Shown: positions 24,011-31,207 of the stretch, piece by piece
Layout: each line of letters starts with the position of its first letter
How positions within the stretch are numbered: the first letter of the stretch is position 1
DNA from: Escherichia phage JLBYU24
Reading direction: 5' to 3' (one strand)
DNA length: 64,000 nt
Sequence record: OK272476.1
Made by a program: the position numbers and the translations under genes
The notes under the pieces: model-generated
Databases searched by the model: none
What the model was told of the DNA's origin: nothing
Seen by the model: the letters and a program-made list of their open reading frames with translations, nothing else

Positions 24011-24397
24011 TTATTCGAGGGAAAGAAGATATTTACTCTGGTAAAACATTCCAGTAATATCATCTATCGTGCTTTGAATGGCTGGAGGCATTTCTTTATA
24101 AATGCTGTTAGATTGGTCTAGTATGCGATCAATCATTTTAATTGTGTCGGTAGGAAGTTTACTGGCATCTGGAATTGAAGGCGTGTATTTTCTACCAGAA
24201 TACCCCAAATATTGCTCACCAAATTTATCAATCAAATCTGGCAACTCGGAGAAAATAAAATCGTATGCTTTGTGTCTAGCATAACTTTTAGTTTCAAAAT
24301 GTGCAGAATGAAAATAAGCTTGTGCAGCCATTAATAAACCTAAGTATTCATCTGCCTTTGAAGGTTTTCCACTTTGTGAAAAGTCGCTGAATTTCAT
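24011..24397 (-). CDS. Hypothetical protein at T4 rI.-1 position
   Basis: 128 aa, overlaps rI start. Confidence 0.65.
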
Positions 24398-24687
24398 TCA
24401 GTCTCCAATTTAATGTTCATAATTCTAGCGTATGATTGTGCCATCTCCGCGCCTCGCTCTATACATTCAAAATCAGAAGAGCACGGGTCATTTTTATAGG
24501 TCGTTCTCATAAAACTATAGAATTGTTCAGACGATTCTACGCTTTTATTTTCAAAAAGCATATAAACGTGCCTAATACCAGATTCCATAAATTTATCAAA
24601 ATGAGGATCGACATTCGCTTCAATCGATGGAGATAAAACAAATGACAATCCTAGCATGGCAAAAAGTGCCGTTGCTTTTAAGGCCAT
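24394..24687 (-). CDS. rI: Lysis-inhibition regulator RI (membrane-anchored periplasmic protein)
   Basis: 97 aa, N-terminal signal-anchor LKATALFAMLGLSFVLSPSIEA, recalled identity to T4 RI. Confidence 0.8.
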   Translation of the reverse strand: MALKATALFAMLGLSFVLSPSIEANVDPHFDKFMESGIRHVYMLFENKSVESSEQFYSFMRTTYKNDPCSSDFECIERGAEMAQSYARIMNIKLETE

Positions 24688-24955: not shown

Positions 24956-25537
24956 CTAACCGAGCTTTTTAGTTAATTCATTCCAATGTTTTCTGCACAA
25001 AGAAACATAAATTTCATCACCAATACAGATTTGATTACCTTCTTTAACTGGTGTTCCATCTTCCATTAATCGAGCTGTCATAATCGCTTTTTTGCCGCAA
25101 TGACAAACTGCCTTTAGTTCAATAAGTTTATCTGCAATCGCTAAAAGTTCTTTAGAACCTTCAAACAATTTTCCAGCGAAATCAGTCCTTAATCCATAAG
25201 CCATAACAGGAACATTATATGTATCAACAATTCGGCTTAATTGGTGCACCTGTTCAGTTTTTAAAAACTGAGCTTCATCTACAAATACGCAATGAATATC
25301 TTTTTGTGCTTCAGCCCATTTATAGAACTCGAAAATATCCATATCATCTGTAATAATATTCGCTTCCTGTTTAATTCCAATGCGAGAAACAACTTCACAG
25401 ACAGAATCGCGAGTATCAATAGCAGGCTTAAGAACTAATACACTCATTCCACGTTCTTTATAATTATGTGCAGCAGTCAAAAGAGAAGCAGATTTTCCAG
25501 CATTCATTGCTGCATAAGTAAAAATTAAACTCGCCAT
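24956..25537 (-). CDS. tk: Thymidine kinase
   Basis: 193 aa, P-loop YAAMNAGKS, C-terminal zinc cysteines CHCGKK...C..C. Confidence 0.93.
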   Translation of the reverse strand: MASLIFTYAAMNAGKSASLLTAAHNYKERGMSVLVLKPAIDTRDSVCEVVSRIGIKQEANIITDDMDIFEFYKWAEAQKDIHCVFVDEAQFLKTEQVHQLSRIVDTYNVPVMAYGLRTDFAGKLFEGSKELLAIADKLIELKAVCHCGKKAIMTARLMEDGTPVKEGNQICIGDEIYVSLCRKHWNELTKKLG

Positions 25538-25546
25538 ATCACCTTC

Positions 25547-25732
25547 TTAAAGCGTATTCACATAAGCTATTAATTCATTTTCTTTCTTATCAAACCGGTC
25601 AGCAAATTCTTCTTGTTGTTCGGGAGATAGCGGGCCGTATTCATCATAAAAGGTGTTTGCTTCTGTATGCTCATCTAGAAGTTCATGGATAAGCTCAAAC
25701 AATTTATCTTTTTGTTCTTTACTTAGACTCAT
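25547..25732 (-). CDS. Hypothetical acidic protein
   Basis: ORF track. Confidence 0.55.
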   Translation of the reverse strand: MSLSKEQKDKLFELIHELLDEHTEANTFYDEYGPLSPEQQEEFADRFDKKENELIAYVNTL

Positions 25733-25898
25733 ATATTAATTTCCAGGAGTTTTAAAATAATTCGCTTTTGCTTAAATATTTCCATAGTTAAATGACCAGT
25801 ATCTTTTTGACCGATTCCAATGGCAAAACCTTTATTAACAGCGAGTTCAATTAAATTATCAAGCTCACGTAACACTTCGTATTGTAACTCAAAACTAT

Positions 25899-26126
25899 TC
25901 ATTTTGGTTTACCTTCTTTAACGAAATCAGGATAAGGATAAAATCCTGAATAAAATCCTTCACCTTTATGATTGATGCATCCTTTATTAGAACAATAGCA
26001 CCAATAATCGAAATCACAAGCCATTTCATCGTTGCATAAAGCAAAAACAACAGGCCACTTACACTTTTCACAGTGGGCATTTTTAAGAATACTAGTTTGG
26101 CTCATAACCATGTAACCTTTAAGCAA
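25899..26126 (-). CDS. Cys-rich small protein (start possibly 26105)
   Basis: Multiple Cys pairs CEKC...C..C...C.C...C; ATGA coupling with upstream ORF if Met at 26105. Confidence 0.45.
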   Translation of the reverse strand: MLKGYMVMSQTSILKNAHCEKCKWPVVFALCNDEMACDFDYWCYCSNKGCINHKGEGFYSGFYPYPDFVKEGKPK

Positions 26127-26314
26127 TATTCTTCTACATGTTGTTTACGACCTTTCTTATCAATAAAGGTATATTCAACGAATGTTCCAATGTAGTCTTT
26201 ATCTACATCATGTGGACTATTAATTGGACATTTAGTACGGCAAATGCGTTCCCATTGACGAATAATTACTGCTTTGTTTTTAGGATCAAACGGATGCGGG
26301 TAATGTACTTTCAT
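26102..26314 (-). CDS. Hypothetical protein
   Basis: ORF track. Confidence 0.55.
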   Translation of the reverse strand: MKVHYPHPFDPKNKAVIIRQWERICRTKCPINSPHDVDKDYIGTFVEYTFIDKKGRKQHVEEYCLKVTWL

Positions 26315-26765
26315 AATCCACCACTATTAAATCAATATCAGGAGTAAACATGTCGATTAATTTAGAAACCTTATCCCAATCGCCGCCAGCAATACCACAA
26401 CCTATGCGTGGAATGTAAATTACCGGTTTAAACAAAAGGGTTTCTGCCTGTAGATTTAATTCTATCATGCAGTTTACTAAAGCACCATAATCAAGATTAG
26501 GACCTGGTTCGTATTGCGTATACAAGTTATAACATATGCCAAAACCATTAGGTTTATGTTTAAAAACAATAGACATATCGCCTAATTTATCACGAGAACC
26601 GTACTCAGTAGTGGTTTTATCTATTTCTAAAATTTTGGGATAGGCTCTTGCTAATTGACCAGCTACACCACTGCCCATTGTATGAAAACAGTTACACCCA
26701 TGCGCAATAATATTACCTTCAAGAAAGAGGGCGACAATATCGCCCTTGATATATTTTACAATCAT
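26286..26765 (-). CDS. Macro-domain protein (ADP-ribose binding/processing fold)
   Basis: 159 aa; HGCNCFHTMGSGVAGQL and IPRIGCGIAGGDW resemble macro-domain motifs. Confidence 0.65.
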   Translation of the reverse strand: MIVKYIKGDIVALFLEGNIIAHGCNCFHTMGSGVAGQLARAYPKILEIDKTTTEYGSRDKLGDMSIVFKHKPNGFGICYNLYTQYEPGPNLDYGALVNCMIELNLQAETLLFKPVIYIPRIGCGIAGGDWDKVSKLIDMFTPDIDLIVVDYESTLPASV

Positions 26766-27103
26766 CTAGTACTCAATCCTCGATTATAAGAATCTACCAA
26801 ACGGTCAACCATTGAATGACAAGCGGCTTTATCTTTTTCCTCCGCAACTGAACATTCTAAGGTATTCCACTTTTTAGCATATCGTTTTAACAATGTATCG
26901 TTTTTGTATCTGCTTGATTTATCTCTTTCTCCGTCTTTATATGCATATATTAATTTCTGCGCAAATTCAGCTTGGCATGCTTTATTTTTCCCGCAATAAT
27001 CCGCTGCAGTACGGTTTACATACTCTCTAATTTCAGTATATGATGTATCTGCTAACGCAGAAAATGAAATTAATCCTATACATAAAACCAAAATTTTAGT
27101 CAT
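26762..27103 (-). CDS. Secreted/periplasmic protein
   Basis: N-terminal signal peptide MTKILVLCIGLISFSALA, 4 Cys in mature part. Confidence 0.6.
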   Translation of the reverse strand: MTKILVLCIGLISFSALADTSYTEIREYVNRTAADYCGKNKACQAEFAQKLIYAYKDGERDKSSRYKNDTLLKRYAKKWNTLECSVAEEKDKAACHSMVDRLVDSYNRGLSTR

Positions 27104-27641
27104 TTACTATTTCCAAAAGTTTATTATTTTTAAGGTAATTAGCCTTTTCTAGGACTTCAGAAGCATATTTAGAACCTGCTTTAACATTCCATCCCGAATT
27201 ATAAGAGGATATTGCTTTTCTTATATCGCCCTTATGTATATTTAACCAATAAGAAAGTTCAATGTACGCCCAGGAAGCTGAATTGGACCGTTTATTCAAC
27301 ATTCTTTTTATTTCAGCATCGGTCATATTATAACCAAGTTCCTTAACTCTTGCTCGCATAGTAGGCAAATAATTTTGGAACATTCCATAAGCGTGATGCT
27401 TTGGTTTAGATTTTAAATTAACTCCGCCAGAGCTTTCTTGCCATAAAATAGCAGCCATTATATGACCTAATCCGCTCTTGTGGATATTTTTGTGTGTTTT
27501 ATATTTTCCATCCTTAGAAAACTGTTCCCCGAATTGATACGCGTAACGCATGTTATCGAGTTGGACATTACTGAAAGTATGCTCGGAGCTATGTGCCATC
27601 ATTGAAATGGCCAATAGACCAGCGAGTAGTGCTTTTCTCAT
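27096..27641 (-). CDS. Secreted lytic-transglycosylase-like (SLT domain) protein
   Basis: Signal peptide MRKALLAGLLAISMMAHS; AAILWQESSGG and MFQ motifs typical of SLT catalytic region. Confidence 0.65.
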   Translation of the reverse strand: MRKALLAGLLAISMMAHSSEHTFSNVQLDNMRYAYQFGEQFSKDGKYKTHKNIHKSGLGHIMAAILWQESSGGVNLKSKPKHHAYGMFQNYLPTMRARVKELGYNMTDAEIKRMLNKRSNSASWAYIELSYWLNIHKGDIRKAISSYNSGWNVKAGSKYASEVLEKANYLKNNKLLEIVND

Positions 27642-27648
27642 GCTTACC

Positions 27649-28110
27649 TCATTGAGTTTTAATTACTGCTTTAGAAGCCTTTCCTGGTAAACGACGACTG
27701 TTAATAATTGCCATCCTGCATTGAAGCGACGGGTCTTTGAACTTCGCATTAGGTTTACAAACTGTAAACCCAAGCCAAAGATTTCCATCTGTGATTTCTA
27801 AACGTCCAGGACGATATTCAACCCCATCAATAAAATCCTCGTCAATGTCAGGACGCGGAGGCATACTCAGGAATTCATTAACTTCTAAAACATGGTCTTT
27901 TATTTTGTGGAATAATTCAAAAACATATGTCTCATCAATCTCCCGTTGAATTGCACGATCAAGAAGATGCTGAGAATATTTTAGATGAAACGATGAGACC
28001 CCTGCTGCTTTTGATGCCTCACGAATCTCATTGTTAATTTGACGAAACTCCGACTCAAAATGACGACGAAGCTTATTTCGACGGATAAAAACTTCTGTAT
28101 TGATAGTCAT
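27649..28110 (-). CDS. regB: Endoribonuclease RegB
   Basis: 153 aa, MTINTEVFIRRNKLRRHFE... recalled as T4 RegB. Confidence 0.85.
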   Translation of the reverse strand: MTINTEVFIRRNKLRRHFESEFRQINNEIREASKAAGVSSFHLKYSQHLLDRAIQREIDETYVFELFHKIKDHVLEVNEFLSMPPRPDIDEDFIDGVEYRPGRLEITDGNLWLGFTVCKPNAKFKDPSLQCRMAIINSRRLPGKASKAVIKTQ

Positions 28111-28137: not shown

Positions 28138-28167
28138 ATTATACCACAGTCAAGAGGAAAAGTAAAC
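28138..28167 (-). promoter_or_regulatory. T4-type early promoter upstream of regB
   Basis: GTTTAC (28162-28167), 18-nt spacer, gTGgTATAAT (28138-28143). Confidence 0.55.
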
Positions 28168-30307: not shown

Positions 30308-30781
30308 TTATTTGAACGATTTAACGTACTGAATAGAACCTTTACTATTCACAAAGGCAATTTTACCATTTTTATTATACATGGTAGCAGTACGTTGATA
30401 ACCATAAGTTTGTTTACCAGATTGATAACCAACTAATGCGAAATTATCTTCGCCCATTTTATTCTGTTTAGCGCGAATGCGTTCATGACCATGTGCCATA
30501 AGAACCTTAGCATCACCAGTTGCAATGGATCGACGAGTTTTTTCATCTTCAACTGTATTAACAAAGTCGTCAAATGAATCAAATTTAGCATGAGATTTAT
30601 TATACAATTTTCCATCTACTGCATAATTATATCCCTGTACATCCATCTCAACTTCTGTACCATCATCCAATACAGCAGTGATTTTTTGACCTTTTTTAAA
30701 TTTCAAAAGATCAGTAAAAGATTCAGCAATAATTTGAGAATTAATAGCTGCTTCAGTGATAAATTCTTGATATGTTTTCAT
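30308..30781 (-). CDS. Internal-protein-like (capsid-targeted) protein
   Basis: 157 aa; N-terminus MKTYQEFITEA matches the T4 internal-protein capsid targeting sequence; located beside denV/e as ipII/ipIII in T4. Confidence 0.7.
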   Translation of the reverse strand: MKTYQEFITEAAINSQIIAESFTDLLKFKKGQKITAVLDDGTEVEMDVQGYNYAVDGKLYNKSHAKFDSFDDFVNTVEDEKTRRSIATGDAKVLMAHGHERIRAKQNKMGEDNFALVGYQSGKQTYGYQRTATMYNKNGKIAFVNSKGSIQYVKSFK

Positions 30782-30790
30782 ATGTTTCCT

Positions 30791-31207
30791 TTAAATGTAA
30801 ATATTTTTACCGTAATACTTATACCAATGTGGTTTCATTAAAATTTTTTCATCAAGTCGTTGTTGACTCAATTTAATAGCTGATTTGCATGGATTATAAT
30901 CATTTTTCCATTCTACTGGAATATCGCTGATGTCAGGAACTTCAGTATCTTTTATACTGAACCCGCGTTTTAAGCATTCCGTTATAATGTCTAATTGACG
31001 CTTTCGCAAAAATTCTAACTTATCGTAAAAGAACGTAACATGACCAGAACCTAAAATAAACTCGGAAGATATTTTAAAATCTTTAACGCGCTTACCGTTT
31101 GCCACATGCTTACGAACTATACCAAAAACACGCGGCAATTCACGGTATTCTGCGATTAAATGTTGATCAGCAAGTTCAGATACTAAAGTCAAATTAATAC
31201 GAGTCAT
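30791..31207 (-). CDS. denV: Endonuclease V (pyrimidine-dimer DNA glycosylase)
   Basis: 138 aa, [17 protein letters not shown]...WYKYYGK recalled as T4 endo V. Confidence 0.9.

Follow-up and report, generated by a model that had tools for sequence, protein, structure and literature searches.

Vs.1 of T4-type phages as a predicted early exported SLT-fold enzyme, and its conserved neighbour Vs

Murein-cleaving enzymes comparable to Vs.1

Family 1 lytic transglycosylases feature a signature that consists of a catalytic Glu in an E-S motif, followed by G-L-M-Q and A-Y-N-x-G motifs. A single catalytic carboxylate marks a lytic transglycosylase, while the hydrolytic goose-type lysozymes have extra Asp residues. 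Vs.1, a protein of T4-type phages, shares 13–20% identity with the family 1 enzymes Slt70, MltE and MltC from E. coli and Slt and MltF from P. aeruginosa. It has none of the superhelical, lipoprotein or LysM accessory domains of family 1 and features an extra N-terminal helix and hairpin (residues ~25–58) that these enzymes lack. Additionally, Vs.1 differs from them in that a phage encodes it and produces it early during infection. In function it comes closest to the small specialised transglycosylases that open peptidoglycan locally without lysis, for instance EtgA from the EPEC type III system. VirB1, IpgF and P19 are likewise small specialised lytic transglycosylases of secretion or conjugation machines. 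Unlike the EtgA-type enzymes, Vs.1 has no known associated envelope-spanning machine, and linking it to the spanins, the holin/antiholin or another T4 assembly is speculation.

Exported endolysins have been described in two types, the signal-peptide type (Lys44 of Oenococcus phage fOg44) and the signal-anchor-release (SAR) type (Lyz of P1). Both are sole lysis enzymes and are encoded by late genes. Vs.1 is like them in that it is a predicted muralytic enzyme sent out by Sec well before lysis. It differs from the SAR type in that its N-terminus, rather than being a releasable membrane anchor, is a signal of the cleavable type with a short core (~13 residues) and an A-x-S site. A signal-anchor-release reading was rejected for Vs.1 and its neighbour Vs because both have a short hydrophobic core (13–15 residues) with an A-x-A or A-x-S site behind it.

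Lysis in T4 requires e and t. Two murein-cleaving enzymes, endolysin e (GH24) and the tail lysozyme gp5, come from the same phage as Vs.1, and a 2020 study credits T4 with two lysozyme genes, e and 5 (PMC7650644). Vs.1 is unrelated in sequence to T4 e, in agreement with the original prediction, made from the DNA alone, of an enzyme distinct from the endolysin. Vs.1 would be a third murein-cleaving enzyme of T4 next to e and gp5, one that is predicted to be exported early and that is costly to lose in a transposon screen. Establishing what an early periplasmic transglycosylase does would close a gap in the knowledge of the most thoroughly studied phage.

T4 Spackle (gp61.3) is a small, helical, cysteine-bearing protein. 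Two studies describe it as an early periplasmic inhibitor of the gp5 lysozyme (PMC7677548, PMC7650644). Vs resembles Spackle in that it is an early T4 protein of periplasmic appearance whose gene is located beside or close to a muralytic function. Unlike Spackle, Vs carries a cytoplasmic annotation, and no structural or sequence match between Vs and Spackle or a known inhibitor was detected.

The SLT resemblance of vs.1 was already known, since Nolan et al. reported the match in six T4-like phages in 2006, citing an earlier PSI-BLAST result for T4 (PMC1524935). GenBank records also carry the label 'SLT domain-containing protein'. Biochemical or localisation data on Vs.1 were not found in the accessible literature, and no accessible paper discusses a signal peptide in Vs. 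The analysis presented here suggests, with a probability of about 0.7, that Vs.1 is an early-made, Sec-exported, soluble periplasmic lytic transglycosylase that works on the host sacculus before lysis as a non-essential accessory relevant to fitness.

Layout and expression of the vs.1-vs locus

The 64-kb window, which is the whole stretch of DNA that was analysed, belongs to a T4-type phage (Tequatrovirus). The 2-kb region that surrounds vs.1 and vs shares 99.8% identity with Escherichia phage JLBYU31, and at least 80% of it is covered by 599 phage records. The two adjacent ORFs originally noticed are both present, and fill positions 26762–27641 exactly on the minus strand. The 181-aa ORF at 27096–27641 is T4 Vs.1 with 100% identity. 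The 113-aa ORF at 26762–27103 is T4 Vs with 97% identity, an identification that had been missed, and it is annotated as 'valyl-tRNA synthetase modifier'. Vs matches PHROG 1256 (E = 5.2e-40), and its homologues carry a precomputed PF26829 assignment. The sole difference between this Vs and T4 Vs is a 2-aa deletion and one substitution at the tail of the N-terminal hydrophobic segment. FSASASA before the Asp in T4 becomes FSALA (SASA to LA), which leaves the signal 2 residues shorter, limits the variation to the predicted cleavage region and keeps the mature sequence identical. The gene order regB, vs.1, vs, tk.4 (macro domain) and onward to tk matches that of T4. The features of the locus are as follows.

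28138–28166, minus strand: T4-type early promoter upstream of regB, predicted function (consensus scan and direct reading)
27649–28110, minus strand: regB endoribonuclease gene in the T4-like position (Pfam REGB_T4, E = 1.4e-68), first gene of the transcription unit, given as context
27096–27641, minus strand: vs.1 CDS, 181-aa precursor of a predicted exported SLT-fold (GH23) lytic transglycosylase
27588–27641, minus strand: predicted Sec signal peptide of Vs.1, residues 1–18, cut after Ala-His-Ser (n/h/c-region analysis)
27435–27437, minus strand: codon of Glu69, the predicted catalytic acid/base of the E-S motif (invariant in 37 homologues)
27096–27103, minus strand: 8-nt overlap of the vs.1 stop and the vs start, ATGACTAA (direct reading)
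26762–27103, minus strand: vs CDS, 113-aa precursor of a predicted exported four-helix protein with four conserved Cys
27050–27103, minus strand: predicted Sec signal peptide of Vs, residues 1–18, ending in Ala-Leu-Ala before Asp (sequence reading)
26762–26765, minus strand: ATGA overlap of the vs stop and the tk.4 start (direct reading)

The 8-nt overlap suggests that vs.1 and vs are translationally coupled. The junction was checked in six other genera, and the two genes overlap or share a base in five of these and are separated by a 7-nt gap in one. The early promoter reads GTTTACT-N17-TGgTATAAT from 28166 to 28138 and is the likely source of a transcript that runs through regB, vs.1 and vs. 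A convincing minus-strand terminator was not seen between this promoter and vs. A MotA-box (middle promoter) pattern was also sought and was absent from the regB promoter to vs.1, the nearest one being inside tk.4 at 26459–26484. Both T4 proteins have been classified from proteome data, as they are listed as 'early-RNA_middle-Protein' in a published supplement (PMC9697503). The early expression proposed for the pair is consistent with both the promoter and this T4 class. A GC-rich 8-bp hairpin (AGGGCGA...TCGCCCT, both strands) is located at 26728–26746, after the vs stop and inside the start of tk.4. The scan flagged it as terminator-like, though it has a poor T-tail on the minus strand; the hairpin could influence the read-through or the stability of mRNA past the end of vs.

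Fold, catalytic residues and export of Vs.1

The motif WQESSGG, which had pointed to an SLT-type catalytic region in the 181-aa ORF, corresponds to residues 67–73 of Vs.1. This region is supported by a Pfam SLT (PF01464) match over residues 61–154 (25.1 bits against a gathering cut-off of 21.3, E = 1.4e-5), and 33 of 37 homologues match the same family (best E = 1.3e-7). A structure model built with 37 sequences (pLDDT 88.8, pTM 0.82) is alpha-helical and lysozyme-like in fold and can be superimposed on lytic transglycosylases of solved structure. A structure prediction lacking the SLT fold had been named as the result that would speak against the idea, and the model is a confident SLT fold. 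Foldseek searches with the model placed SLT/family 1 families on top with weak E-values (best 7e-3). Searches of Vs.1 against the sequences of solved structures, as a single sequence and as the 37-sequence profile, gave nothing significant, and NCBIfam gave no match for either Vs.1 or Vs.

All three family 1 motifs are found in Vs.1. The E-S motif is present as E69-S70, and E69 is invariant in the 37 homologues. G86-M-F88-Q89 is a variant of G-L-M-Q in which G, F and Q are invariant, N90 is likewise invariant, and S146-Y147-N148-S-G150 provides the third motif with invariant Y, N and G. The only invariant acidic residues in the 37 homologues are E69 and E128, and no conserved Asp was found among them, including between the E-S and G-x-x-Q motifs. 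This pattern favours transglycosylase chemistry over that of a goose-type lysozyme. The original prediction of a secreted muramidase keeps its SLT/GH23 enzyme fold, while the term 'muramidase' gives way, since lytic transglycosylase is most likely the better name to judge from these residues.

Sec signals were recognized by a basic n-region, an uncharged hydrophobic core of 7–15 residues and small residues at -3/-1. The N-terminus of Vs.1 is MRK-ALLAGLLAISMMA-HS followed by SEH, with a maximum Kyte-Doolittle(9) value of 2.74, and that of Vs is MTK-ILVLCIGLISFSALA followed by DTS, with a maximum of 3.47. All three features are seen in both proteins, and their hydrophobic cores are short. The predicted cuts fall between AHS and SEH in Vs.1 and between ALA and DTS in Vs, which gives the mature N-termini SEHTFSNVQLDNMR for Vs.1 and DTSYTEIR for Vs. 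Among the 140 ORFs of the window that start with ATG and have 60 aa or more, 7 pass a crude version of the rule, including Vs.1, Vs and antiholin RI. The rI antiholin gene (97 aa, 24394–24687, minus strand) provides an internal positive control for exported proteins. With a slightly looser rule, all 37 aligned Vs.1 homologues pass, including those from Ackermannviridae and Felixounavirus, whereas identity among these homologues is 43% in the signal region versus 62% in the mature part. A signal-like N-terminus is also found in 7 of 7 Vs-like proteins, in which the signal segment is hydrophobic but variable among homologues. The AlphaFold models leave both N-termini at low confidence and outside the folded domains: the Vs.1 model has a pLDDT of ~60 at residues 1–20 and above 90 for most of the remainder, and the Vs model falls below 50 at residues 1–3 and 10–18. 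The proposal that both ORFs begin with signal peptides is upheld by these n/h/c features and by their conservation. We infer that Vs.1 is exported via Sec and cut after residue 18, and Vs is very probably exported too. A lipoprotein reading of Vs, based on LVLC at residues 5–8, was rejected: the -1 residue is Leu, Cys8 is unconserved, and the segment departs from the lipobox [LVI][ASTVI][GAS]C.

According to the mechanism that we propose, vs.1 and vs would be transcribed together with regB from the early promoter and translationally coupled via the 8-nt overlap. The 181-aa precursor would be processed to a soluble, basic (pI ~9.7), 163-aa periplasmic SLT/GH23 enzyme, in which Glu69, as the single conserved catalytic carboxylate, may cut the MurNAc-GlcNAc bonds of host peptidoglycan. 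Vs.1 would begin to work in the early-middle period, well ahead of the holin/endolysin step, and modify the sacculus as a non-essential accessory and not as the lysis enzyme itself. A point against this mechanism is that early export of an active murein-cleaving enzyme would be expected to do harm unless the activity is weak or kept in check. Mature Vs would be a protein of ~95 aa that forms a four-helix bundle with two likely disulfides. Candidate roles for Vs.1 include sacculus conditioning, lysis timing, helping envelope-spanning assemblies and muropeptide release.

Relatives of Vs.1 were found by tblastn in 2,045 phage records from three phage groups. They include Aeromonas and Acinetobacter T4-like phages, Ackermannviridae (Det7 gp70) and Felixounavirus (finno gp46), and all relatives that were inspected have signal-like N-termini and the same motifs. 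In Escherichia phage finno (L007:1-2400), gp46 adjoins rIIA/rIIB, being encoded right after them and near the spanins. In Acinetobacter phage W16 (L009:1948-2112), a block of vs.1, vs and a third protein is located two genes from rI (lysis inhibition). The repeated occurrence close to lysis-timing genes is no more than suggestive.

The Vs protein, rival readings and neighbouring genes

The sequence features of Vs and its annotation are at odds, and this is the more interesting tension of the vs.1/vs pair. The AlphaFold model of Vs, made from an alignment without a row for the T4 reference Vs, is a four-helix bundle over residues 20–111 (pLDDT 79), and the mature part contains four cysteines, C37, C43, C84 and C95. 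A Vs-like protein is encoded directly 3' of vs.1 in Klebsiella, Acinetobacter, Krischvirus, Tegunavirus, Gualtarvirus and Gelderlandvirus phages. The divergent members share ~32% identity with Vs (hhalign probability 97.5%). Across seven genera the pattern C-x5-C ... C-x8-10-C is conserved, the proteins share a G-[LI]-x tail (GLS, GLT, GLL, GLQ or GIT), and their pI varies from 4.4 to 8.9 with no conserved charge. A HMMER search with the Vs profile against 1.84 billion representative proteins gave 8 matches, all from phages, which indicates a narrow family with no bacterial relative to lend Vs a function. A sequence search of Vs against solved structures gave a chance ribosomal match only, and comparison of its fold gave no functional lead. 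In five non-T4 genera, the Vs-like gene is followed by a gene for a third protein of 130–148 aa (L008:3363-3755, L009:1221-1652, L011:1218-1655, L012:1152-1598 and L013:1218-1619). This protein features a signal-like N-terminus, often with NA or A before a W, and two conserved Cys, and completes an exported run of vs.1, vs and the third gene ahead of the macro-domain gene. It is absent from T4 and from the window, and a Pfam scan of the third protein and the divergent Vs-like proteins gave nothing.

Fitness data on T4 are provided by the HIDEN-SEQ transposon screen (bioRxiv 10.1101/2025.11.20.689424). Both vs and vs.1 are classed as non-essential in that screen. Insertion counts per site after liquid LB competition are 22.6 for vs.1 and 26.6 for vs, while the neighbours regB, tk.4 and vs.3 have 178.6, 289.6 and 652, and gene e has ~2.5. 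A shift from LB to M9-glucose gives a log2FC of -2.19 for vs (adjusted p reported as 0) and of -0.87 for vs.1 (p 0.0055, adjusted p 0.155). In the clinical strain CFE299, vs.1 is depleted with a log2FC of -1.20 (adjusted p 0.015). The authors of the screen confirmed that a vs deletion has a plaque defect in M9-glucose. Depletion of vs.1 insertions could stem partly from polarity on vs; that insertions in the upstream regB are undepleted argues, weakly, that the effect is not simple polarity.

The annotation of Vs as a cytoplasmic protein that binds valyl-tRNA synthetase and is unrelated to Vs.1 has a real chance of being right, somewhat short of even. Its N-terminus would then be unused for export, or export would be partial, and the adjacency of the two genes would reflect the general synteny of T4-like phages. 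The predicted mature Vs is 11.0 kDa, and the purified synthetase-modifying factor was reportedly ~10 kDa. Biochemical work of the 1970s is reported to show that Vs binds valyl-tRNA ligase and alters its properties (Muller and Marchin 1975, 1977, as related in PMC8076793). In HIDEN-SEQ, vs is also the gene most depleted in minimal medium, a result that the authors interpret through the synthetase annotation. T4-like phages keep the entire block from regB to tk in synteny, so that adjacency by itself is weak evidence for a connection of vs.1 with vs. However, the signal-like N-terminus with its Ala-x-Ala site is kept in seven genera despite sequence drift, and lies outside the fold at residues 1–18. 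No in-frame alternative start skips this signal, the next Met being residue 98, and the four conserved Cys in the mature part are typical of periplasmic disulfides. His-tagged full-length Vs was insoluble in the E. coli cytoplasm (PMC8076793). The assignment itself goes back to a 1986 record (X04567) that names the gene only 'ORF 60.9', and the basis on which this ORF was equated with the genetic vs locus was not found in accessible records. The predicted signal peptide, the four conserved Cys, the adjacency to vs.1 and the similar depletion of the two genes together fit a periplasmic location of Vs and sit badly with the cytoplasmic annotation.

Two ways of joining Vs to Vs.1 remain tentative. 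Vs may work with Vs.1 in the periplasm, whether by inhibiting or timing it or as a subunit that activates or targets it, for which Spackle, the early periplasmic inhibitor of the gp5 lysozyme domain (PMC7677548), is an analogue within T4. The adjacency or overlap of the two genes in seven Straboviridae genera, the exported look of both proteins and the similar depletion of vs and vs.1 insertions, unlike those of regB and tk.4, speak for such a partnership. A simple inhibitor is harder to reconcile with the cost of vs.1 insertions themselves, with the Vs-like proteins having no conserved charge (pI 4.4–8.9) and with the occurrence of Vs.1 without Vs in other phage families. It is likewise possible, though doubtful as a whole, that Vs is not, or not solely, the cytoplasmic synthetase modifier of its annotation but an exported, disulfide-bonded periplasmic protein that forms with Vs.1 a conserved two-gene envelope module that aids fitness, especially in minimal medium, and to which most non-T4 genera add a third exported protein. 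If such a module exists, the assignment of the 'vs' ORF to the gene, or the in vivo relevance of synthetase binding, needs to be revisited, and a wrong annotation of Vs would mean correcting a label copied into hundreds of phage genomes. For Vs.1 itself, a catalytically dead or non-enzymatic peptidoglycan binder, or a virion component for DNA entry, is very improbable. T7 gp16, which appears at rank 45 of the matches, does carry an SLT-type domain in the virion. The catalytic Glu and both flanking motifs of Vs.1 are invariant in 37 homologues, which argues for retained catalysis, and a predicted cleavable signal with early/middle timing misfits a tail or head component. Additionally, gp5 already serves entry of T4 (PMC7650644). 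The early exported transglycosylase reading of Vs.1 is the one that we prefer.

Other differences from T4 were observed near the locus. The gene after vs, tk.4 (26286–26765, minus strand), matches Pfam Macro (E = 6e-8). A 2025 preprint gives the name AdfM to the macrodomain protein of T4, which counteracts the defence toxin DarT2, and we infer that AdfM is tk.4. The first part of the gene (~26317–26616) is unaligned to T4 by blastn, which indicates that the N-terminal half of tk.4 is divergent here. The segment between tk and tk.3 (25537–26101) has been exchanged relative to T4, with other small ORFs (61, 57 and 75 aa) and no blastn match to T4 tk.1 or tk.2. Between vs.8 and e (30308–31207, minus strand), where T4 has the order e, ipIII, ipII, denV, the window has e, a denV-like ORF (138 aa) and a single 157-aa ORF. 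The latter starts with MKTYQEFITEA, similar to the leader that targets T4 internal proteins to the capsid, and the region looks like a swap of internal proteins.
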